Shown in pieces: positions 29,587-47,102 of a stretch of DNA of 51,634 nt. This DNA is from a virus. Its lineage: Duplodnaviria; Heunggongvirae; Uroviricota; Caudoviricetes. The notes beneath the pieces are model-generated. The model was given only the letters and a program-made list of their open reading frames with translations. It did no database searches and was not told the DNA's origin. Within the stretch, counting starts at the first letter, position 1. Every line of letters begins with the position of its first letter. The stretch lies in the IMG/VR virus record IMGVR_UViG_2579779024_000005. One strand, 5' to 3'. A program made the translations under genes and the position numbers.

Positions 29587-30120
29587 TTATCTGTCGATTC
29601 CCCAGCACGCCAGCGCGCTCTCCTGGTCACGACGGAATACCTGACCGTAACAGTTATTTGAGCGAATACGGCAGTCTCTGCCACCGTCCTTAATCCACCA
29701 GCGAATCGCTTCGCATGCTCCCCTGCGATCACCTGCATTAATTCGTCTGTAAAACGTCGACGGGAAACACTTACCGGGACCAATGTTGTACGGACAGAAT
29801 GACGCGATCCCCGCTTTCTGGGGTTCGGTCAATGGCACTTTGATGTTTTTCTCCACCCATGCCAGCGCCTTATCACGCTCAATGGCGTTAACCCGGTCGC
29901 ATTTTTCCTTCGACAACTTCATGCCCGGAACGACAGGTTTGCCATCCACCAGGATGGCACCGCGGCAGATGGTCCAGATACCCGCGCCATCACGGTATGC
30001 CGTGGTGTGGTTACCTTCCTTTTCATCCAGAAACTGGTCGAGAATGTCAGGCGCAGGCGCACCAGCGGCAATCAGCGCCAGAACGGCAGCCGACAGGCCG
30101 TATCTGATTTTTGCGTTCAT
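29587..30120 (-). CDS. R: SAR endolysin (T4-lysozyme-like)
   Basis: 177 aa; N-terminal signal-anchor-release segment (LSAAVLALIAAGA) and lysozyme core (...EGNHTTAYRDGAGIWTICRG...). Confidence 0.85.
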   Translation of the reverse strand: MNAKIRYGLSAAVLALIAAGAPAPDILDQFLDEKEGNHTTAYRDGAGIWTICRGAILVDGKPVVPGMKLSKEKCDRVNAIERDKALAWVEKNIKVPLTEPQKAGIASFCPYNIGPGKCFPSTFYRRINAGDRRGACEAIRWWIKDGGRDCRIRSNNCYGQVFRRDQESALACWGIDR

Positions 30121-30225
30121 GGATATTTATCAGGATTTATCGGTTTCTGAGCCCTGGATATGTTTATCAGTTCCAGCCTGTTGCCTCAGGCTGCTAACAG
30201 GTCAATACAATCATGAGGATTATTT

Positions 30226-30498
30226 ATGGACAATAACACCATTTCTCTACAGGAGTTGCTCGACAGCATTTCCAGGCTTCGGGAAGACGTGAATACCCTT
30301 ACCGTCGCCTTCTCATATCTGGCATTCTCAATTCCAAGGGAACAGATGCAATCAACGCTGGCATCAATCCAGTTTGAATCATGCAATCCCAAATGGTCTC
30401 AGGAACAACAAGACTCTTTCAGGCGGCTTGCTGTATTACTGGATGAAAAATATGCTGGTAAAATTACCATTTCGGCGGACTCTTCAGAGAACCCGTAA
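30226..30498 (+). CDS. Hypothetical 90-aa protein, antisense to the lysis operon
   Basis: GAGGA RBS 7 bp upstream of ATG; overlaps the 3' end of the convergent 114-aa ORF by ~35 bp. Confidence 0.45.
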   Translation: MDNNTISLQELLDSISRLREDVNTLTVAFSYLAFSIPREQMQSTLASIQFESCNPKWSQEQQDSFRRLAVLLDEKYAGKITISADSSENP

Positions 30499-30808
30499 TT
30501 ATTCCCGGTAGTTTTCCTCTGTAGGTTATCAACACATCCTGCGCCTCTAAAATTACGGGGCGCTTTTCCGGCGACTGCTCATCCCCTTCACATAACCCGG
30601 CAGCAACATCCAGGAAGACCTGTCTGATGCTCCTTCTGGCTGCTGCCTCATAAAACTCCAGCGCGGCACCTTCAACACGGTCCAGCGAGATGTCCAGGTC
30701 AAAAATTTCACCGTCAAAGCGTTTTTTGTCCCGTAACGCTAAAGTTACCGTAACTTTATTCTCAAAATTGCGGATCCCTTTCACAATCAGTTCATAGTTT
30801 TGAGTCAT
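30464..30808 (-). CDS. Hypothetical protein between holin and endolysin (ydfR-like position)
   Basis: 114 aa; starts 4 bp after the holin stop. Confidence 0.55.
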   Translation of the reverse strand: MTQNYELIVKGIRNFENKVTVTLALRDKKRFDGEIFDLDISLDRVEGAALEFYEAAARRSIRQVFLDVAAGLCEGDEQSPEKRPVILEAQDVLITYRGKLPGIITGSLKSPPKW

Positions 30809-30812
30809 TGAA

Positions 30813-31028
30813 TTACTCTCCCCGTGCCGCCTTACGACGGTCCTCTCTGATTTTGAAATACAGGTTAGTCAGATATGTCAGCAGCCCAAACAGCAGACTC
30901 CCCAGCACGCCTATTGCCGCCCACTGAGACGGGGAAACCCTGTCCAGCAACTGCAGGAACCAGTAGCCCGTTCCCACCGCTGACGTGGTGTATGACACAC
31001 CTGTTGTGATTTTTTCCATCTGGTACAT
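30813..31028 (-). CDS. S: Holin with dual-start motif
   Basis: [71 protein letters not shown], as recalled for essD-type holins; M-Y-Q-M dual start. Confidence 0.85.
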
Positions 31029-31155
31029 ACCCCGTCTCCCGTTATCCGGAAGCTGACAACAATAAAAAAAGCCACCAGTTAAGTACTGATGGCTCTGATA
31101 ACTCATGCAGGCATCTCAGACGACCCACTGACACTACCGGTGAGTTTAACGATAC

Positions 31156-33417
31156 CTTCCATTTGACTGGCTCACTTTTTATGATGATGCCGGTGCATTT
31201 ATCTCCAGCACCAGACTTTCTATCTCAACGCCATACGTTGCATTTTTGGTAATATCCGTCAGCGTCAGCGCATTCAGCCCCAGTGTCAGACTGTCTTTTA
31301 TGACCTGGAATGCCGGGCCAGCCACTCCATTCAGTTTCGGAGTAACCGTGGCACTGCCGGCGGTGAACACCAGCTCCAGCGTCTGCCAGTCGTTACTGTA
31401 ATTCCCGAACTCGCCCAACTTTGTGTTTCCTGCTTTCTTGTGATGCATCAGATTCAGTTTGCCGTCTGTGGTCTGGGTGAAGAACGACATCAGGAACGGG
31501 TTACCAGTCCCGGTCATCGCCACGACGTCAGGTAACGCTACATCGGTATACAGATAAATTCCCAGACCGAACTGATTGTTGGTCAGTGCGCCTGACAGTC
31601 GAAACTTACAGCTCAGTCTGCCACCCCGTGTCAGCAGGGAGACTGCGTCATCCACCGGGCGCGTCAGGGACCAGGCTTTATTGCTCTGCTTGGTGATCTT
31701 AAATACACCATCTGACAACTGAATTCCGCCATTCTTAATGCTCCAGCCCTGCGCAGCAGCATCTCCGGCTGTCGGCAACAGGGAGATTGTGCGTACGGAT
31801 GCATCTTCAGACGGCCCCGATGGCGTGTCGCCGCCGGGCGAGGGTTTGATTTCCGGTGCCTTACCACTAATGAAGGCTAAGGTGCGACCGGCTACGTTCA
31901 GAATAGCAGTTGCCATACGATCGGGAATAATGCCACGACGCGCCCATGAGCTGAAATGCGTCGGGCGATTTGATGATACCCAGTTTTTGTTCGTTCGGGA
32001 TGCCGAACCGTAATAACCAGACCCGGCAATATCAGGATCTTCTGACGGGTTGTTTGTCGGTGTATTAACTCCGCTACCATCGGTCATAAAGGGAACAAAA
32101 TAAATCTGCTGGGATTCTTTACCTTTATATGCACCATATACCACTTCATATTGCGTACCGTGTTCTTGTTTCCACGCGTATGTCGTGTCGCCACAAATCC
32201 AGGGGACTGATGCCGGACTTCCACCGTGACACTGCGCCGCCAGCCCGGCAAGGTCAGCACGGAACTGCTGTACCATTGCAAGAAATCTTCCATTTGACTG
32301 GCTCACTTTTTATGATGATGCCGGTGCATTTATCTCCAGCACCAGACTTTCTATCTCAACGCCATACGTTGCATTTTTGGTAATATCCGTCAGCGTCAGC
32401 GCATTCAGCCCCAGTGTCAGACTGTCTTTTATGACCTGGAATGCCGGGCCAGCCACTCCATTCAGTTTCGGAGTAACCGTGGCACTGCCGGCGGTGAACA
32501 CCAGCTCCAGCGTCTGCCAGTCGTTACTGTAATTCCCGAACTCGCCCAACTTTGTGTTTCCTGCTTTCTTGTGATGCATCAGATTCAGTTTGCCGTCTGT
32601 GGTCTGGGTGAAGAACGACATCAGGAACGGGTTACCAGTCCCGGTCATCGCCACGACGTCAGGTAACGCTACATCGGTATACAGATAAATTCCCAGACCG
32701 AACTGATTGTTGGTCAGTGCGCCTGACAGTCGAAACTTACAGCTCAGTCTGCCACCCCGTGTCAGCAGGGAGACTGCGTCATCCACCGGGCGCGTCAGGG
32801 ACCAGGCTTTATTGCTCTGCTTGGTGATCTTAAATACACCATCTGACAACTGAATTCCGCCATTCTTAATGCTCCAGCCCTGCGCAGCAGCATCTCCGGC
32901 TGTCGGCAACAGGGAGATTGTGCGTACGGATGCATCTTCAGACGGCCCCGATGGCGTGTCGCCGCCGGGCGAGGGTTTGATTTCCGGTGCCTTACCACTA
33001 ATGAAGGCTAAGGTGCGACCGGCTACGTTCAGAATAGCAGTTGCCATACGATCGGGAATAATGCCACGACGCGCCCATGAGCTGAAATGCGTCGGGCGAT
33101 TTGATGATACCCAGTTTTTGTTCGTTCGGGATGCCGAACCGTAATAACCAGACCCGGCAATATCAGGATCTTCTGACGGGTTGTTTGTCGGTGTATTAAC
33201 TCCGCTACCATCGGTCATAAAGGGAACAAAATAAATCTGCTGGGATTCTTTACCTTTATATGCACCATATACCACTTCATATTGCGTACCGTGTTCTTGT
33301 TTCCACGCGTATGTCGTGTCGCCACAAATCCAGGGGACTGATGCCGGACTTCCACCGTGACACTGCGCCGCCAGCCCGGCAAGGTCAGCACGGAACTGCT
33401 GTACCATTGCAAGAAAT
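31156..33417. repeat. Perfect tandem direct duplication, 2 x 1131 bp, covering the 3' 1.1 kb of the esterase gene
   Basis: Copy 1 is 31156-32286 and copy 2 is 32287-33417; the translated ORFs in both copies are identical. Confidence 0.85.
31179..32306 (-). pseudogene. Duplicated 3' fragment of the nanS-p-like esterase gene (C-terminal 370 aa only)
   Basis: 375-aa ORF identical to the C-terminus of the 622-aa protein; its N-terminal codons are created by the duplication junction; lacks the esterase domain. Confidence 0.6.
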
Positions 33418-34178
33418 GCTGCTGGCTGCTGGGCGTAACTGGCATTCGTCATATCGAATTCCCCCTGCATCCAGCATATCGCCAGCAAAACGTTTTTCGG
33501 GTTTTTCTGCAATGCTGCCTTCGTGCGGAAAAGCAGATCCTGATATAACGGCTTACCCACTCCCCAGCGAGCCGAATCCTGACTGGCCCCCGTGGACTCG
33601 CTGAATGTCCCCTCCGTGCCCTGGGTGAATGCCGAACCACCACGACAGCATGGTACCAGCAGGATCCCCGCATTATTAGGGATATACGGAAGCAGTTTTT
33701 TGGCAATATGTAAGCCCTGTCCGACACAGCCGTACTGCCCTTTGCTCAGGTCAGCCCGGGGATGGTTAATCGTACTCATATCCTGAACATCATGCAGACA
33801 ATGGTCAGCAGGAATGATGTCGTTAAATACGCATACTTCACCACCGGGAGTCACTGTGTTACGACGGGCCAGTTGCTTAATGCGCGGATGGGGCGCATCG
33901 TATGAATCCGGAAGCGGAAGCCCTTCACCGTAAGCCATGGCATTGGATTGCCCGGCCAGTACGATGACGTAGTACCACTCCGGCTCAGTTGCACCACTGA
34001 CGACCACATCACCTTCTGCTGCAATCGCCTGCATCAGGGTATAAGGGGTTATGGCCACCGGACTACCAAACGGCTGCCAGCCCTCTTTCAGTTTATGTGT
34101 CAGCTTTTCCGCAAGATCTGACGGCGACGCCGCCCTGACAACATCATAGTGTTTAAATGCCATGGTTCTTTCCACCAT
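32310..34178 (-). CDS. nanS-p: Prophage sialate O-acetylesterase (NanS-p-like)
   Basis: 622 aa; DUF1737-like N-terminus, SGNH/SASA esterase core with GQSNA motif (IVLAGQSNAMAYGEG), C-terminal beta-rich domain. Confidence 0.75.
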   Translation of the reverse strand: MVERTMAFKHYDVVRAASPSDLAEKLTHKLKEGWQPFGSPVAITPYTLMQAIAAEGDVVVSGATEPEWYYVIVLAGQSNAMAYGEGLPLPDSYDAPHPRIKQLARRNTVTPGGEVCVFNDIIPADHCLHDVQDMSTINHPRADLSKGQYGCVGQGLHIAKKLLPYIPNNAGILLVPCCRGGSAFTQGTEGTFSESTGASQDSARWGVGKPLYQDLLFRTKAALQKNPKNVLLAICWMQGEFDMTNASYAQQPAAFLAMVQQFRADLAGLAAQCHGGSPASVPWICGDTTYAWKQEHGTQYEVVYGAYKGKESQQIYFVPFMTDGSGVNTPTNNPSEDPDIAGSGYYGSASRTNKNWVSSNRPTHFSSWARRGIIPDRMATAILNVAGRTLAFISGKAPEIKPSPGGDTPSGPSEDASVRTISLLPTAGDAAAQGWSIKNGGIQLSDGVFKITKQSNKAWSLTRPVDDAVSLLTRGGRLSCKFRLSGALTNNQFGLGIYLYTDVALPDVVAMTGTGNPFLMSFFTQTTDGKLNLMHHKKAGNTKLGEFGNYSNDWQTLELVFTAGSATVTPKLNGVAGPAFQVIKDSLTLGLNALTLTDITKNATYGVEIESLVLEINAPASS

Positions 34179-34423
34179 CTGAAAAATGATTCTTTAAAAT
34201 ACCTGACATGTAATACAGAAAAAACACAAAACCATACCTTAAATAAAAACCTCATCATCAAGCAGATATGCATGGATAAACTACAAGACGAGATATAAAC
34301 CACCCTGCATTTAAATAAACAATAAACAACATCAGAAAAATAATTCTGCTCTATGGTTTACAATCAAAAATATCATTTATACTTTTCAGAACATCACCAG
34401 CAAGGCATAAACAAGGAAACTAA

Positions 34424-34759
34424 ATGAAGTGGATTGTGATTGATACAGTTATCCAGCCATCATGCGGAATATCTTTTTCAGTCATATGGAGTAAAATAAA
34501 ATTAATAATCTGGTATCAATCGGATGCTTTCTTACCTCCTGAAAGTATATTTACACTGACTCACACAGGCATCATGCTCAATAACAAAGTGCTACCTGTA
34601 ACCATTTACAACGTAGTACCATTCAATAAAACATTCTGGAATTTAATCAAAAACAGCCAGGAATGCCCTACAAATACAGATAACGTATTGAATGAATGCT
34701 TTAATAACCGTTGCACTCTGCAAATATGTCCTTATGGACTAAAACAACAAAGTCCATAA
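34424..34759 (+). CDS. Hypothetical AT-rich ORF
   Basis: 111 aa; AT-rich; ends in a 10-bp perfect hairpin (ccttatggact...agtccataagg). Confidence 0.4.
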
Positions 34760-35206
34760 GGAGTTTACTCACATCTGACAAAATCAATATAAACAGCCCC
34801 TCCGGAGAGGGGCTGGAGAGTGGCGCTATGTGCCATTGCATGGTGCCGGGTGCCTCCCGGTGAATTCAGTACCAGCACCTGAATCCGCGATTATCCCATA
34901 TACCTACTCGCTGATTGCCCCTCCGCACAGGGGGATTCACCATGCCAGTTTCTTTTAACAAACTCCCCGCAAACCAGACAACAATCAACCGCCTGAATTG
35001 TGAAGTATTTAAAAATTTCTCCCGCTAACTGATACCCGGCTAACAGTCTGGCGTTTTCTTTTTCAGCAACGGGAAAGCAACAACCACCACACCCGCCACC
35101 AGCACACCGTCAGCCAGCACTGACATTATCCGGCTGCAGCAATGCCATTCACAAAAACAGTAAGCAATCACTTTTTACCGTAACCGGTGATAATCCAGAT
35201 ATGTAT

Positions 35207-35563
35207 CTACCCCAGATGAGTAATCCGAAGTTCATCCATACCACAGGTCCTGGCTATTCTGTTGTACTCCTGAACAAGAGTAAATAATTCTGAATTAGCC
35301 ACCATGAACTCATCGCAAACCCTCTGTATAGCATCACTATTCAGAATAATAACGTCTCTTCCCGAAAGACGATCAGGAGTACAGAACAAAACTGTCAAAC
35401 GGCTGAAGGCCTTTGCTCGTGCTGCATTGACTATATCAATACGCTGCCTAAGGATGAAACACCCCGACGCCTCATCAATATTCACTCTACCCACACCATA
35501 TGAATGATAAATATTTAATGCTGAAAAAACCATTAGACCGTATAACAAACACTCAATCAACAC
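35207..35563 (-). CDS. Hypothetical protein at the position where Stx phages carry stxAB
   Basis: 118 aa; AT-rich flanks; no recognisable motif; possible internal start at MVFSAL. Confidence 0.45.
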   Translation of the reverse strand: MLIECLLYGLMVFSALNIYHSYGVGRVNIDEASGCFILRQRIDIVNAARAKAFSRLTVLFCTPDRLSGRDVIILNSDAIQRVCDEFMVANSELFTLVQEYNRIARTCGMDELRITHLG

Positions 35564-35670
35564 TTAACAGAACTTTTATTTTTGACAAACATATAATATT
35601 TTCAACAATATCCTGAGCCAGGTATATTTCAGTATAAGGCTCTGCCGGAAGGAATCTGGAAGAATGAATA

Positions 35671-35747
35671 TGGCGCGCTGTACTGGATTCGAACCAGTGA
35701 CCGATTGCTTAGAAGGCAATTGCTCTGTCCGGCTGAGCTAACAACGC
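35671..35747 (-). tRNA. argO: tRNA-Arg (anticodon UCU)
   Basis: 77-nt cloverleaf: acceptor GCGTTGT/ACAGCGC, D-stem GCTC/GAGC, anticodon stem ATTGC/GCAAT with loop CTTCTAA, T-loop TTCGAAT, encoded CCA. Confidence 0.85.
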
Positions 35748-35847
35748 TGAATACCGATAATGGACCGCCATCGGGGACCCGCCCCCGCACCAACAACCCT
35801 GTTATCGTGTCGTCTGCTCTTCCTGATAAGCTAATGGCGGTTTGTGA

Positions 35848-35923
35848 TGGTGGCCCTTGCTGGATTTGAACCAGCGACCTGGCGATTATGAGTCGCTCGC
35901 TCTCACCACTGAGCTAAAGGGCC
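35848..35923 (-). tRNA. ileZ: tRNA with CAU anticodon, ileX/ileZ-like (tRNA-Ile2)
   Basis: 76-nt cloverleaf GGCCCTTTAGCTCAGTGGTGAGAGCGAGCGACTCATAATCGCCAGGTCGCTGGTTCAAATCCAGCAAGGGCCACCA; close to the E. coli ileX sequence as recalled. Confidence 0.8.
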
Positions 35924-35972
35924 GGGAGCAGAATAATAATGGTGCGTAATTAATTCTGCAATCTCATCCGTT

Positions 35973-37022
35973 TCAAACGATTAAACCCTGAACTTCCCTG
36001 ACTGTCTGCTCAAAACGTCCGGTCTCCAGCTCAACGCCAATCGCACGACGCCCGAGCGCCAGTGCCGCTTTTACCGTTGAACCTGAGCCCATAAAAAAAT
36101 CTGCAACCAGGTCACCCGGACGACTGCTTGCGCTGATTATCTGCTGCAGCATTTCTGCCGGTTTTTCGCACGGATGTTTCCCGGGATAGAACTGCACCGG
36201 TTTATGTGTCCACACATCCGTGTACGGCACCTGCGCCGTCACACCAAAATACCGCCGCAGATGCTTATATTCACTCTGCAGCTCCACATACTGCCGGTTC
36301 AGTGACGTATACGTATCCACCAGCTGGTGGTGGGGCTTTTCCAGTTCACCGCGCTGATGTTTCTCTTCTGCCACCCGGGCAAACAGCGACTGTAATTTCA
36401 GATAATCGCTTTCGTTCGGTAGCTGCCACTGACTGGCACTGAACCAGTGCGACACCATGTTTTTCTTTCCTGTGGCATCTGCAATCTGTTTTGCCGTTAT
36501 CCCCAGGGCCGCGCGCGCATCACGAAAGTAAGAAATCAGCGGGGCCATCACATGCTGTTTCAGTGCACTGCCCTTCGCCGCATACCCGGCATCTTTCGGA
36601 CGATACGGCCCCTGATAATGTTCCGCGAACAGAATGCGCTCTGTGGCGGGGAAATACGCCCGCAGGCTTTCCTTGTTGCATCCGTTCCAGCGTCCGGACG
36701 GCTTCGCCCAGATAATATGGTTCAGCACACTGAAGCGTTCACGCATCATGATTTCGATATCAGATGCCAGGCGATGACCACAGAACAGGTAAAGACTTCC
36801 GGCAGGTTTCAGCACCCGCCAGAACTGCGCCAGACACTGGTCCAGCCACTTCAGGTAATCATCGTCGCCCTTCCACTGGTTATCCCAGCCCTCAGGCTTC
36901 ACTTTAAAGTACGGCGGGTCCGTGACTATCAGGTCAACAGAATTTTCGGGTAACGACCGGATAAATTCCAGGCAGTCGGCGTTGATTAACTCACAACTGG
37001 ATATTTTTACAGTATTAGCCAT
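35973..37022 (-). CDS. Orphan DNA N6-adenine/N4-cytosine methyltransferase
   Basis: 349 aa; DPPY catalytic motif (LIVTDPPYF) and C-terminal AdoMet-binding region (FFMGSGST). Confidence 0.85.
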   Translation of the reverse strand: MANTVKISSCELINADCLEFIRSLPENSVDLIVTDPPYFKVKPEGWDNQWKGDDDYLKWLDQCLAQFWRVLKPAGSLYLFCGHRLASDIEIMMRERFSVLNHIIWAKPSGRWNGCNKESLRAYFPATERILFAEHYQGPYRPKDAGYAAKGSALKQHVMAPLISYFRDARAALGITAKQIADATGKKNMVSHWFSASQWQLPNESDYLKLQSLFARVAEEKHQRGELEKPHHQLVDTYTSLNRQYVELQSEYKHLRRYFGVTAQVPYTDVWTHKPVQFYPGKHPCEKPAEMLQQIISASSRPGDLVADFFMGSGSTVKAALALGRRAIGVELETGRFEQTVREVQGLIV

Positions 37023-37173
37023 AGATCAATAAGCACTTCTCTGATAGGCTCATACCGCTTTTGCGCAAAGCAGATGGGCCTGAGGTTTGCTTGTGACCCC
37101 AACGCATGAGCAGATGGCTGGTGGGTGCCCCTAACACCCACCAGCCGCCCATTTACCACAAATAAAAAAGCCT

Positions 37174-37371
37174 TCACTGCGGAAGGCGTCTGTAACAACC
37201 GAACTGATAGTCTGCCAGACCCGCCATAACCAGCTGGGTCAGTATTAACTGGCAGCGTTCGCGTGAAAGGTAAGTATTCTGCGCAATCTCCCCGGCTGTC
37301 GCCGGTTCGGTGACGCTTAATTCATTAAACACCACTCTGGCGGTTTCTGTCATATCCTGCTGTTTCAGCAT
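37174..37371 (-). CDS. Small hypothetical protein downstream of tR'
   Basis: About 65 aa from an internal ATG with AAGGGA RBS. Confidence 0.35.
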   Translation of the reverse strand: MLKQQDMTETARVVFNELSVTEPATAGEIAQNTYLSRERCQLILTQLVMAGLADYQFGCYRRLPQ

Positions 37372-37493
37372 GTCTTTTTCCCTTTTCCGGTTAACGTGAC
37401 ACACCAATAACTCTTGTCGAAAAAGCCAGCAAGCTGAAAGACAGGTATTCACCGCCACCAGCGCGTTTACTGTACTGACGCGATTTCAGTCAT

Positions 37494-37515
37494 AAAAAAC
37501 CCGCCAGGCGGCGGG
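37494..37515 (-). terminator. tR'-like intrinsic terminator downstream of the late promoter
   Basis: Minus strand: cccgcc-gcct-ggcggg followed by a U-run. Confidence 0.55.
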
Positions 37516-37564
37516 GTGTAAAAAATCTTCTAACGTCAGGCATAAAACGCCCATCGTTAGAGCA

Positions 37565-37592
37565 AATTTACCACAGATTCGGGAAAAATCAA
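37565..37592 (-). promoter_or_regulatory. Late promoter pR' with expected qut site
   Basis: Minus strand TTGATT-16 bp-TAAATT directly downstream of Q; lambda pR' has -10 TAAATT as recalled. Confidence 0.5.
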
Positions 37593-37597
37593 CAACA

Positions 37598-38419
37598 CTA
37601 TCGCGTTACCCTCTTTAACTGCCGCTCCGCCCATGCCTCTTCAATGTCAAACCGAACCACCAACGTATCGTAAAAGCGTTTCACTGATTTTTTCCACGTA
37701 TCAAGCGTGATAGCACTCGTCACTTTGCATATGGCATTAAATGCCTCCGTTGATGGTAGTCTTTCACAGCCACGACCACCACAACGCTGGCAGTCTCTGA
37801 TAACAGGCATACCACGTTTTACCGACTCTTCACGATGAATGGCGACACCACGCCCACGGCAGTCTTTACAGGCAGTGGAAATCTCCCCCTTCCCTTTACA
37901 TTCAGGACAAGAAACTTTCACCACCTCCCGAATTTTTTTCCATTCTTCCCAGTAAGACGGATACACACCTTTCGTACACTTTGCCCATACTGGCGGCTTG
38001 CCATCCGGATACTGAACCTTGTTTGTAAAAACTTCGCCTTCAATAAATTTTTCCCCTCGGCAACAGGGGCACTGCTTTTTACTCGCTGCGCTGCGGGCAT
38101 AATCCTCAAAAGCGTACGAAGCCATAATGCGCATCACTACCGGTTTTATTTCTGCCGGAAGTTTTCTCAACGCCGCCACACGATCGCACCGACTGAGTGC
38201 ATAATCTGCCAGTAATTCTGTTGCCCGCGCCCTGTCATTCATACTGATGCCCATTTTCCCCAGGAACGCAGAAAACCCCATCTCAGCCCGATTCTGTGTC
38301 ATGCCCTGCGCGGCCATCACATCAGTGATACTCAGCGCATCTTTCGACGTTGAGGCCGATGCATCAGTCAGGCCGGGGGATTTTGGGGAGTAGTATTTCG
38401 GTAAATCTTCCAGTTTCAT
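37598..38419 (-). CDS. Q: Antitermination protein Q-like
   Basis: 273 aa with several CxxC pairs (CPCCRGEK, CPECKGKG, CKDCRGRG, CQRCGGRG); position upstream of pR'/tR'. Confidence 0.65.
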   Translation of the reverse strand: MKLEDLPKYYSPKSPGLTDASASTSKDALSITDVMAAQGMTQNRAEMGFSAFLGKMGISMNDRARATELLADYALSRCDRVAALRKLPAEIKPVVMRIMASYAFEDYARSAASKKQCPCCRGEKFIEGEVFTNKVQYPDGKPPVWAKCTKGVYPSYWEEWKKIREVVKVSCPECKGKGEISTACKDCRGRGVAIHREESVKRGMPVIRDCQRCGGRGCERLPSTEAFNAICKVTSAITLDTWKKSVKRFYDTLVVRFDIEEAWAERQLKRVTR

Positions 38420-38796
38420 TTTTTGACCTGCTCTTCATGCATTATGGGGTAAATCTTCACCCCCAGACGTCCACCAGATACTGGCTGACCACGAACGATA
38501 TTGATTTCATCAAACTGCTCATCGTCCATTAGCAACCCCGCATGCGTCAGCGCATCCAGCGGCGCTTTCAGAATATTGTCCAGATCACGGCGGCGCTTAT
38601 CCGGTGGTTCTGCAATAATTTTTATTGCCAACCTTCCGGACAGGCTTAATTTCAGCCGCTGCTGGCGAACAATAAGCGCCACTGCCCGGCGATAACGCTC
38701 CCCGGCTTTTGATACAAAATATGTGCTGCCACGACGACGCCAGTAAGTGTTCACCGTTGGCGGGTAAGGCAAAACAAATTCTATGCGTTCAGTCAT
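38416..38796 (-). CDS. rusA: Holliday junction resolvase RusA
   Basis: 126 aa; ...PPTVNTYW...RRRDLDNILKAPLDAL... is RusA-like. Confidence 0.85.
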   Translation of the reverse strand: MTERIEFVLPYPPTVNTYWRRRGSTYFVSKAGERYRRAVALIVRQQRLKLSLSGRLAIKIIAEPPDKRRRDLDNILKAPLDALTHAGLLMDDEQFDEINIVRGQPVSGGRLGVKIYPIMHEEQVKK

Positions 38797-39852
38797 TTAT
38801 GCTTTCCACTTCAGAACACCCGAATTTCTCGCGTGCATTAAAAAACGAATCAGCAACAACAGCTGGCTGCCGTGTTTTTCTTCAAAATCTTTTACCCCGG
38901 CGTGTAGTTCGCTATGGCATTTACGGCACAGCGGAATAACAAACAAATCATCAGCCTTTGTTCCCATCCCTCCCAGTCCATGACCAATGATGTGATGCGG
39001 ATCATCTGCCTGATTGCCACACGTCATGCATTTCTGCGTTTTTACCCAACGCGTGTATACAGGCATCTCTTCCCGTTGTGATTTCTGGCGCTGGAGATAC
39101 TGAGCCGGTGACTCCGGATCAACGGCAATGCTGACCACCGTCTTTTCCTGTGGCGGGTTTTGCTGGTGGGCGTGAGGCAGCGGCGCAAGATTTTTTGTGC
39201 GCTGCTTCAGTATGCTGGTGGCGGTCTGCTCTCCCGGTACGATGTCGCTTTCACGGTACATTGAGCGGATTTTTTCCGCACGCAACCCCAGCGAACGACG
39301 TAATACCGCTTCCGGTAGCGCGTCCGCCACCTGATTGCGGACCGCCCACCAGGATAATTCAGCCAGCGATAATTCCCGTTCCTGCGAGCCATTCATTGCA
39401 TGGCGTATGACGTCAATCATCCATGCAAACAGGTTTTGGTGAGCAAGTTGCCCGAGTGATTCGGAGGTCTGGTCGCGCAGCTGGTTGTCGCAGTGCCAGC
39501 ACAACACCATTGCGCCGGTACCATAACGGTGAATGACGGTTTCACTGTGGTGATAATCGCCGTGTGGCCACTGGCAGGATTTAACATGGCGCAGTAACCA
39601 GTCAGACAATGCGCCAGCGCCACCAGCAGCACGAATCACTCGTTCGTCGCTGAAAAATGGCAGTAATGATTTATCCTCCGCCAGCGGCTGGCGAACGGCA
39701 GGAACGACCCCGGACGGCAGATTACGCATGCTTTTCGGTTCCGGCTCCACCAGTACCCGGGTATTGTGGAATACCGGCATGGATTCACGGCCCGGCTTAA
39801 CGATCACCAGCCCGAGTTCCGGTACCAGAACAGGTCGAAGTAATACCCGCAC
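38797..39852 (-). CDS. DUF968-type protein with C-terminal HNH-like Cys/His cluster
   Basis: 351 aa; CMTCGNQADDPHHIIGHGLGG...CRKCHSELH; ydfU-like position upstream of rusA. Confidence 0.65.
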   Translation of the reverse strand: MRVLLRPVLVPELGLVIVKPGRESMPVFHNTRVLVEPEPKSMRNLPSGVVPAVRQPLAEDKSLLPFFSDERVIRAAGGAGALSDWLLRHVKSCQWPHGDYHHSETVIHRYGTGAMVLCWHCDNQLRDQTSESLGQLAHQNLFAWMIDVIRHAMNGSQERELSLAELSWWAVRNQVADALPEAVLRRSLGLRAEKIRSMYRESDIVPGEQTATSILKQRTKNLAPLPHAHQQNPPQEKTVVSIAVDPESPAQYLQRQKSQREEMPVYTRWVKTQKCMTCGNQADDPHHIIGHGLGGMGTKADDLFVIPLCRKCHSELHAGVKDFEEKHGSQLLLLIRFLMHARNSGVLKWKA

Positions 39853-39853
39853 G

Positions 39854-40126
39854 TTACCTCCAGATGCGTTGCTGGAATGTGCGGGACGGACGCGGTGGGC
39901 GTTCAGAGTAAGGAAGCCTGACGGAGATTATCCAGTGACGATAATCGAGGCTGAGGGCTTTCTTAATCTCGTATCCGCGTCTGCGGTAGTTATGAATTAG
40001 CCATTCGGCCTGTTCTTCAGTACATGGTGGGTGTTGGTACCAGTCGGTTTTAAATGCGTGTGAACGCCGCCCATGCCGGATGGCAAGGTCGGTATCAGAA
40101 TTGTGAAATTTGGTTTTGTGCGCCAT
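39854..40126 (-). CDS. Small hypothetical protein (nin-region)
   Basis: 90 aa; basic and aromatic-rich. Confidence 0.4.
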   Translation of the reverse strand: MAHKTKFHNSDTDLAIRHGRRSHAFKTDWYQHPPCTEEQAEWLIHNYRRRGYEIKKALSLDYRHWIISVRLPYSERPPRPSRTFQQRIWR

Positions 40127-40293
40127 CTGTTTTCTCTGCTGGCGCAGCAGGTGTCAGGTGTTCAGGCTGACGTGCGAATTGTAAACCAGAATGCCAGAAA
40201 AAAACAAAACCCGCCGAACCGGGTTAAGTGCGGGTGCGTTGAGGATGCCTGACACATCAGAGGTGGCGAGGGATTTCTCCCCCGCCGGGTCTC

Positions 40294-40449
40294 TTACTCC
40301 TCAGGTTCGTAAGCTGTGAAGACAGCGACCTCCGTCTGGCCGGTTCGGAGTCGTACCTCGCAGAGGTCTTTCCTCGTTACCAGTGCCGTCACTATGACGG
40401 TTAAACAGATGACGATCAGGGCGATTAACATCGCCTTTTGCTGCTTCAT
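40294..40449 (-). CDS. hok: Hok/Gef-family type I toxin
   Basis: MKQQKAMLIALIVICLTVIVTALVTRKDLCEVRLRTGQTEVAVFTAYEPEE; the listed 70-aa ORF extends upstream in the mok-like region. Confidence 0.85.
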   Translation of the reverse strand: MKQQKAMLIALIVICLTVIVTALVTRKDLCEVRLRTGQTEVAVFTAYEPEE

Positions 40450-40686
40450 AGCCTGCTTCCCCTTGCCTTTCGGCACGTAAGAGGCTAACCTACATTTGTG
40501 AGACATAGATTGGGCCTCAGATTAATGTTAAGCGTCTTGCAGGACGCGAAATGTTAACTGGGGCTTTTCTCTATCTGCCTTTCAGTGTTCATGCCTGAGA
40601 CAGATAGCCTCAAGCACCCGCAGCCATTCTACTTAACTCACGTCACCTCGCCAATATGAAATCAATCAGAAAGGTGATCCATAAAA

Positions 40687-41373
40687 TCACTCCTTCTCTT
40701 CTTTTCCGTAGTGGAGTTGGCCAATTTTGATAAGAGGGCGTCCCTGAGATTTGCGGTGTAGATTGGTATCGCGCAGAGAATACACACAGCCACAATATTC
40801 CTGCTGATAGAATTTTTCGCGCTTGCTGATTTCAATCATACGGGACGAGCCGCCCTGCTTGCGCCAGTTATAATCCCAGTACACCATACCCGGATAATGC
40901 GCAACAGCTCGCCGCCCACACTCGTTAACCTGCTGCATATTTTTCCAGCGTGAAATGCCCAGTGAACTGCTGATCACACTGAAACCATTTTCAGCAGCGT
41001 ACAACGCTGTCCGCTCAAAACGCATGTCAAAACACATGGTACAACGGATCCCCCTCTCAGGCTCCCATTCCATTCCTTTGGCACGTTCAAACCAGTTGTC
41101 GGTGTCGTAATCAGCATCGATAAACGGCACGCCGTGTTGTTCAGCAAAGCGAATATTTTCATCCTTACGAATTAAATACTCTTTCTGAGGATGAATGTTC
41201 GGGTTGTAGAAAAAGATGGTGTAGTCGATTCCCGAGGCCTGAAGCGCCTCCATCACTTCACCGGAACATGGAGCACAGCAAGAGTGCAGTAGTAGTTTGT
41301 TTGCCCCGTTTGGGAGCTCCAATTTAGGCCGTTTGAAATCAGCAATAGTCATAAATATTTTTATTGGGGTCAT
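40687..41373 (-). CDS. queH: QueH-like (DUF208) epoxyqueuosine reductase homolog
   Basis: 228 aa; motifs [41 protein letters not shown]. The ORF track labels this '+', but the ATG (41371-41373 reverse complement) and stop exist only on the minus strand. Confidence 0.7.
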
Positions 41374-47046: not shown

Positions 47047-47102
47047 TTCTGGTGACGTTTGGCGGTATCAGTTTTACTCCGTGACTGCTCTGCCGCCCTT
47101 TT
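47047..47102 (+). ncRNA. dicF: DicF small RNA (cell-division-inhibitor sRNA processed from the dicB operon transcript)
   Basis: TTTCTGGTGACGTTTGGCGGTATCAGTTTTACTCCGTGACTGCTCTGCCGCCCTTTTT matches the DicF sequence as recalled; it lies in a 560-bp ORF-free region. Confidence 0.75.

Follow-up and report, generated by a model that had tools for sequence, protein, structure and literature searches.

A probable mosaic moron site with iraL, an STnc100-family small RNA and a conserved 92-codon reading frame at the stx-equivalent position of a lambdoid Escherichia coli prophage

Positions 34,179 to 35,670 of IMG/VR virus record IMGVR_UViG_2579779024_000005, a stretch of 51,634 nucleotides (nt) that was analysed at its full length and is called the window here, very probably form the PR'-proximal moron site of a lambdoid Escherichia coli prophage that lacks the Shiga toxin (Stx) genes. 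This 1,492-nt segment reads as a mosaic built from four short elements that assort independently, namely iraL, a small RNA (sRNA) of the STnc100 family, a gene for a DUF3927 peptide, and a 92-codon gene that we refer to as orf92. The main elements are already known: iraL has been characterised, STnc100 is a curated family, DUF3927 is in Pfam, and the architecture was described in 2014. The site is an ordinary moron site, largely known apart from orf92. A preliminary description of the segment, made from the sequence without database searches, had placed unrelated AT-rich open reading frames (ORFs) and hairpins at the position where Stx phages carry stxAB. Its ORFs, genomic context and hairpins proved real, but the ORF-free stretch, the full 118-amino acid (aa) gene and the uniform AT-richness that it also reported did not.

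The ORF listing, a transfer RNA (tRNA) scan and Pfam searches identify the window as a lambdoid E. coli prophage with a minus-strand late region. The gene order on that strand is late antiterminator Q, an N6/N4 DNA methylase, tRNA(CAU), tRNA-Arg(UCU), the studied segment, a SASA/nanS-p esterase, holin and lysozyme. The Stx-phage-like context suggested earlier holds up, with Q, the methylase, both tRNAs, nanS-p and holin all present, and the late region is collinear with that of the Stx2 phage 933W, whose tRNA block and STnc100 core can be aligned with the window, as can the esterase, holin and lysozyme. Window positions 36074-35663 align to the 933W tRNA block at 86% identity, after which positions 35662-35004 (659 bp, holding orf92 and DUF3927) have no homology to 933W positions 2381-3748, which hold stxA2B2. 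Alignment resumes over the 933W STnc100 core at window positions 35003-34837 (70% identity, hairpins invariant), is absent again at 34836-34165, where the window holds iraL and 933W its AsxR-containing region, and picks up once more from 34164 onward at the start of the 933W esterase gene. Judged from this alignment, orf92 and DUF3927 stand in the exact place of stxAB, and iraL takes that of the convergent anti-sRNA AsxR. The segment is accordingly at the stx slot, as had been described, with orf92 and DUF3927 filling the exact 933W stxAB interval; the reported lack of any StxA- or StxB-like ORF was also confirmed, as no toxin family was found by Pfam and no nucleotide alignment to 933W stxAB was obtained.

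Like the stxAB moron, orf92 and DUF3927 lie on the late-operon strand beside rare-codon tRNAs, in the interval bounded by the tRNA block and STnc100. In contrast, the stxAB interval spans 1,368 bp and encodes an AB5 toxin, whereas that of the window spans 659 bp and contains two small genes with no sequence or family relation to the toxin genes. On the other side of STnc100, iraL shares the slot and orientation of the anti-sRNAs AsxR and AgvB, being convergent with STnc100 and located between it and the esterase, but it encodes a protein of 111 aa and has a promoter of its own. The covariance models for AsxR and AgvB (RF02703 and RF02702) produced no match at E values up to 10 in window positions 34700-35100, and both positive controls, AsxR in 933W and AgvB in phage 75/02, were found by the same means. 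We also considered an AsxR-like anti-sRNA hidden in the 3' end of iraL, and this was ruled out by the covariance-model scan together with the alignment.

This arrangement agrees with that described by Tree et al. in 2014, in which the site is a moron insertion point downstream of PR' and convergent sRNA pairs lie between the moron coding sequence and a conserved downstream ORF (PMC4104026). The comparison with stx-positive relatives that had been proposed was carried out with 933W and 75/02, which share the site with the window and differ in cargo. Among other relatives, mEp460_ev081 has orf92, DUF3927 and STnc100 without iraL, and vB_EcoS-640R1 lacks orf92 but carries iraL and STnc100, the latter in two copies; going by these gene contents, the two cargo units assort independently. 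This fits a role for STnc100 and the tRNA block as conserved recombination anchors, with STnc100 probably serving as an anchor for cargo exchange.

The 111-aa plus-strand ORF (34424-34759, +) exists as first described, but it does not belong among the ORFs of unknown function, as it is iraL, encoding an RssB anti-adaptor of the IraM/IraL family, and lies antisense to the late operon. Its product matches NCBIfam NF007393 ("anti-adapter protein IraM") over residues 1-110 at 162 bits (cutoff 121), is 100% identical to IraL of strain CFT073 (WP_000871291.1, c1429), and matches the solved fragment of K-12 IraM (8TWD; E = 9e-32), sharing 51 of its 78 residues. We assigned ORFs to the iraL clade by an identity of at least 95% to CFT073 iraL and the presence of the iraL promoter and transcription start, and by these sequence features the ORF sits in the iraL clade and not in the iraM clade. 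Reading of the sequence placed a sigma-70-type promoter and start at 34357-34391 (+; TTTACA, a 15-nt spacer, TATACT, with the start at 34391), and the published start of the CFT073 iraL mRNA, obtained by 5'-RACE (PMC4045071), agrees with window positions 34391-34422 at 31 of 32 bases. An 11-bp inverted repeat over the iraL stop codon (34728-34762, +), consisting of GTCCTTATGGAC, a 12-nt loop and GTCCATAAGGA followed by GTTTAC, is a possible iraL terminator.

In CFT073, iraL (c1429) resides in the potB prophage (PMC4045071; PMC12890032), and IraL has been found by experiment to bind RssB and stabilise RpoS (PMC4045071). The iraL transcript is increased at 37 °C (PMC12890032), and IraL levels are higher in a fur mutant (PMC7157518). 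As the CFT073 protein is identical, the mechanism proposed for the window is taken from the experiments on that protein rather than from this strain. IraL would bind the adaptor RssB at its N-terminal domain and thereby stop the delivery of RpoS to ClpXP, raising sigma-S in growing cells. Since iraL is transcribed from a sigma-70 promoter of its own, opposite to the late operon, it would be expressed by the lysogen; conversely, because late transcription runs antisense through iraL, prophage induction should counter its expression. By analogy with CFT073, iraL is a true lysogenic conversion gene, as already demonstrated with the identical protein. The preliminary description had proposed lysogenic-conversion cargo of unknown function, which was right with regard to conversion but not with regard to function, iraL having already been characterised (PMC4045071).

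The CFT073 potB prophage is 98.8% identical to the window across all 1,492 nt, and there iraL has the same promoter and the same neighbors (tRNAs, orf92, DUF3927, STnc100, an esterase remnant and holin). The order given for that prophage is Q, tRNAs, an unannotated gap, DUF3927, "IraM", esterase remnant and holin. The two prophages differ in that nanS-p of CFT073 is cut to a DUF1737 remnant, an IS200 follows Q, and three tRNAs are called, whereas the window has a full-length, partly duplicated nanS-p and a decayed middle tRNA. K-12 IraM, from the e14 prophage region (structure 8TWD), belongs to the same NF007393 family and is an RssB anti-adaptor like IraL, but is about 59% identical to IraL overall; IraM touches both RssB domains and IraL just the N-terminal one, and the genomic context and inducing conditions of the two also differ (PMC4045071).

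The GC-rich hairpins correspond to an STnc100-family sRNA (Rfam RF02076; the EcOnc27/sRNA103/PasD class) at 34785-34974 (-). The RF02076 covariance model matched over model positions 1-206 of 206 with 132.4 bits (gathering score 47). The predicted fold has a minimum free energy of -74.6 kcal/mol (z = -2.26), and when eight copies from five loci were aligned, compensatory changes were seen at 16 of the 41 consensus pairs. Per the terminator scan, the 3' hairpin is a Rho-independent terminator (34815-34794, -). The hairpins reported at 34790-34960 are well supported by these results, but their interpretation as unknown cargo is not, since the same element is found 75 nt past stxB2 in 933W and also after stxB in the Stx1 phage 75/02. 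STnc100 is a constant element of the site in Stx and non-Stx phages alike and is not specific to any cargo. Nor did the ORF-free stretch of about 450 bp hold, as it contains both this sRNA and the 43-aa DUF3927 gene.

The STnc100 family overlaps the Hfq-binding sRNA EcOnc27/sRNA103 (PMC12711010, PMC7873438). STnc100 copies are transcribed in EDL933, one of them confirmed by northern blot (PMC5331693), and STnc100 homologues of O157:H7 have support from Hfq crosslinking and northern blots (PMC4104026, PMC7873438, PMC5331693). A 2026 preprint relates STnc100 to PasD, which likewise adjoins esterase genes. The window copy resembles both STnc100/EcOnc27 (sRNA103) of Sp5/933W and PasD in its Rfam family, its strand relative to PR' and its invariant core hairpins, and resembles STnc100/EcOnc27 of Sp5/933W in sitting between the moron coding sequence and the esterase. 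In contrast, it is about 70% identical to the 933W copy, from which it differs in its 5' region and by a variable-loop deletion. By analogy with these relatives, the STnc100 copy described here would be an Hfq-class sRNA with its own terminator, and it would mark the cargo transcription unit at its 3' end. In identical genomes, the NCBI Prokaryotic Genome Annotation Pipeline (PGAP) places an "incomplete hypothetical protein" pseudogene at 34830-34955 (+), antisense inside STnc100, which probably arises as an artefact of protein homology in the sRNA region. A prophage of E. coli 2014C-4135 has five STnc100 copies (1686-2665 and 4424-4636), four of which are arranged head-to-tail and flanked by an orf92 homologue and an esterase gene.

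The gene in the formerly ORF-free stretch (35040-35171, -) encodes a small DUF3927/TciB-like membrane protein of 43 aa and is annotated by PGAP in identical genomes. The protein matches PF13064 at 93.2 bits (cutoff 25, E = 9.6e-27) and the "TciB-like" family phrog_1470 at E = 1.1e-12, and its PHROG class is "moron / host takeover". It consists of a single hydrophobic helix followed by KKK, with a grand average of hydropathy of 1.03. A tci locus in phage N15 was considered as the source of the "TciB" label and rejected, as N15 is without such an annotation; the name presumably derives from phage P1.

The minus-strand ORF of 118 aa (35207-35563, -) has the coordinates first given for it and contains a real gene, but just its C-terminal 92 codons are conserved, and it is this core, beginning at a GTG start at 35485, that we call orf92 (35207-35485, -; phrog_2873). 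Three lineages at 72-75% nucleotide identity keep the 92 codons open and free of gaps, whereas the 26 codons upstream (35486-35563, -) contain in-frame stops in relatives and have no protein-level conservation, and this N-terminal extension, which includes a candidate ATG start at 35533, is probably not translated. The start GTG-AAT-ATT-GAT is kept in all lineages, one of which has an AGGAG ribosome-binding site. Coding potential was examined by way of synonymous bias, as the preliminary description had proposed. The Nei-Gojobori ratio of nonsynonymous to synonymous substitution rates (dN/dS) is 0.25-0.29 at a dS of about 1.0 in the orf92 frame, compared to 0.8-1.2 in the other two frames, and changes at third positions are about twice as frequent as at other positions. 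Because the synonymous bias is so clear in this frame as compared with the others, orf92 is a real gene on comparative grounds. It matches phrog_2873, a family of unknown function, at E = 1.7e-57 over residues 1-92; distant relatives of 91-95 aa carry the same motifs, and PGAP names one relative, WP_001017777.1, as a 92-aa hypothetical protein.

Approximately one quarter of complete E. coli genomes have orf92. The family is otherwise narrow, with 20 clusters in a collection of 5.8 billion sequences and 20 representatives among 1.84 billion proteins, and all species-representative genomes with a member belong to E. coli or Citrobacter braakii, apart from one doubtful and probably misbinned contig of a metagenome-assembled genome. 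A Citrobacter prophage has an orf92 homologue in the same slot, in the order tRNAs, orf92 homologue, TerB-like gene and holin. In C. braakii (4989-5902), the homologue is directly followed by genes for a TerB-domain protein, holin and an M15 endolysin; the orf92 neighbor is TerB-domain in C. braakii and "TciB-like" in E. coli, a possible tellurite-resistance-type (Ter/Tci) link.

An AlphaFold2 model of orf92 from a six-sequence alignment (predicted local distance difference test score of 85.5) is an antiparallel helical hairpin with helices at residues 3-35 and 50-81, and the invariant TPDR-x-SG motif lies in the loop joining them. The orf92 product is predicted to be a cytoplasmic, soluble protein. 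It would most likely act by attaching to another protein and blocking or bridging it, and as a guess we picture a small hairpin that dimerises and has such a binding role. Searches of Pfam and NCBIfam with orf92 assigned no family (a RHIM match at E = 0.096 is noise), Pfam searches with eight family members retrieved scattered single matches at E values above 0.01, and a sequence-profile search of the PDB gave a best E value of 0.61. In line with the preliminary description, which had given the minus-strand ORF no function, profile and structure-based searches returned no specific relative of orf92. A literature search on the neighboring CFT073 locus tags c1427 and c1428 turned up nothing relevant.

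We would like to note several observations that weigh against the reading of the segment as a mosaic of functional moron elements. The 5' end of the sRNA is set by the Rfam model alone, and promoter-like sites in the segment number 6 compared to 4.4 expected from shuffled sequence. The Shine-Dalgarno sequence of orf92 is weak in the window lineage (GGGT, compared to AGGAG in a relative), and PGAP leaves orf92 unannotated in 27 of the 27 close copies listed (at least 98% identical, from about 1,180 genomes carrying the segment). Foldseek searches of orf92 against the PDB and BFVD retrieved generic helical hairpins with best E values of 0.28-0.42. Finally, two distant phrog_2873 relatives, 33-34% identical to orf92 (5001-5276 and 2091-2375 in their own loci), lie outside prophage late regions, one of them 1.2 kb from a PapB/PapC/PapD-type fimbrial operon and divergent from it, and the other downstream of a GerE-family regulator. 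Some of these points would suit a minus-strand ORF (of 118 or 92 aa) that is open by chance in AT-rich non-coding DNA, with just iraL and the sRNA being functional, as would its GTG start, the absence of a Pfam or NCBIfam family and the clearly unconserved 26 N-terminal codons. Nevertheless, we find a chance frame scarcely credible given 92 gapless codons in three lineages at a dS of about 1 with the in-frame dN/dS described above, the doubled rate of third-position changes, the conserved GTG start with AGGAG in a relative, the PHROG match, the motifs shared with distant relatives of 91-95 aa, and the confident model obtained from six sequences. The hairpins, for their part, could be mere terminators or insulators that separate the cargo from nanS-p and yield no trans-acting RNA, considering the canonical intrinsic terminator at the 3' hairpin, the invariable position of the element at the close of the cargo unit, and its modest folding z-score. 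However, a curated sRNA family is matched over its full length, at 132 bits, compensatory changes preserve the internal helices, and homologues bind Hfq and are discrete on northern blots (PMC4104026, PMC5331693); moreover, overexpression of sRNA103 shifts fimZ and espA transcript levels (PMC7873438, PMC12711010). A terminator without a trans-acting RNA is very unlikely in our view, and we retain the reading of the segment as a mosaic moron site with four elements.

As to what orf92 does, the preliminary description had raised anti-defence cargo, and orf92, with or without DUF3927, could in principle be an anti-defence or superinfection-exclusion factor that acts between phages rather than on host physiology. 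The position in a moron slot, the small size, the narrow taxonomic range, a helical hairpin of the kind typical for small protein inhibitors, and the "moron / host takeover" class of the DUF3927 PHROG are all compatible with such a factor. However, PADLOC models gave no match for orf92, DUF3927 or IraL, and orf92 has no similarity to Pfam families, solved structures or BFVD models; the linkage between orf92 and DUF3927 is inconsistent, and some distant relatives lie away from the late regions of prophages. With no PADLOC, Pfam, PDB or fold match, the anti-defence proposal found no support, and we regard it as unlikely. It is also doubtful, if conceivable, that orf92 is a functionally important late effector inhibiting a host or rival-phage protein and forming an alternative two-part cargo set with iraL, an idea based on the exact stxAB interval, purifying selection, the presence of orf92 in about one in four complete E. 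coli genomes, and its lack of annotation in all close copies sampled (at least 98% identical).

On the late-operon strand, DUF3927 lies upstream of STnc100, and orf92 lies in the interval that holds stxAB in 933W; the terminator scan predicted no terminator between the tRNAs and that of STnc100. Since both genes are on the late strand with no predicted terminator ahead of the STnc100 one, they would be transcribed by Q-modified polymerase, and their products would be made as Stx is, by Q-antiterminated read-through upon induction. Low-level transcription of orf92 and DUF3927 may also come from a conserved pT-like tRNA promoter. The candidate for this promoter (35933-35961, -; TTGCAG, a 17-nt spacer, TATTAT) was identified by its alignment with the element annotated as "pT" in NC_000924, the putative tRNA promoter of 933W, and its promoter function is presumed from that alignment.

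Between this element and the segment lie two tRNA genes and a remnant of a third. The tRNA with anticodon CAU (35848-35923, -) was called as tRNA-Met by ARAGORN and as tRNA-Ile by PGAP. As its body is identical to that of 933W ileZ and the PGAP label is tRNA-Ile, it is presumably a lysidine-modified tRNA-Ile2 that reads AUA. The tRNA-Arg with anticodon UCU (35671-35747, -) is the homologue of 933W argO, per ARAGORN, Rfam and the 933W alignment. In the position of 933W argN, positions 35748-35847 (-) hold a decayed remnant that was recognised by alignment with 933W, in which the acceptor-stem ends align with those of argN and the interior has been replaced; ARAGORN and Rfam made no tRNA call there. 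The decayed gene is thus the middle member of the ileZ-argN-argO trio of Stx phages. AUA, AGA and AGG, the codons served by the tRNAs adjoining the orf92/iraL segment, make up 8.7% of orf92 codons and 5.4% of iraL codons, compared to 0.9-2.8% in backbone genes, and the adjoining AUA- and AGA-reading tRNAs would aid the translation of orf92 and DUF3927.

With regard to the flanks, Q is encoded at 37598-38419 (-; PF03589, E = 5.6e-51), and the N6/N4 DNA methyltransferase, the upstream flank, at 35973-37022 (-; PF01555, E = 2.4e-44). The nanS-p-type SASA carbohydrate esterase (32310-34178, -; Pfam DUF1737, SASA and DUF6645) is the downstream boundary of the moron site. The AT-richness reported for the whole segment applies to the iraL part (32-35% GC) and the orf92 part (38-42% GC) but not to the hairpin segment, which at 48-51% GC is close to the flanks. 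Copies of the 1,492-nt segment at 100% identity occur in many complete E. coli genomes, mostly of ST131 type, and 863 of 5,426 complete E. coli genomes contain at least 80% of it. Strains of the JJ1886 type may have iraL in two copies. Window positions 27048-41000 are identical to strain 4/1-1 (100%) with the exception of one duplication in nanS-p. This is a perfect tandem duplication of 1,131 bp relative to strain 4/1-1 (31156-32286 and 32287-33417), which results in a full-length ORF of 622 aa followed by a partial duplicate ORF of 375 aa (31179-32306), and it may reflect either real variation or an artefact of assembly. Elsewhere in the prophage are a sok antitoxin RNA with hokD (40444-40619, -), a DicF RNA (47047-47098, +) and a gene for the epoxyqueuosine reductase QueH (about 40687-41352), annotated as such in 4/1-1.

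Taken as an stx-equivalent site of an ST131/CFT073-type prophage, the segment carries a proven RpoS-stabilising conversion gene together with a standard moron-site sRNA. It also exposes an annotation gap, in that a conserved 92-codon gene is absent from the RefSeq annotation in every close copy sampled (at least 98% identical). The cargo junctions relative to 933W are now precisely mapped, and orf92 is therefore a cheap target for functional testing. Should the doubtful role of orf92 as a late effector prove true, the exchange of the toxin for orf92 and of AsxR for iraL would define an alternative cargo set of extraintestinal E. coli prophages.

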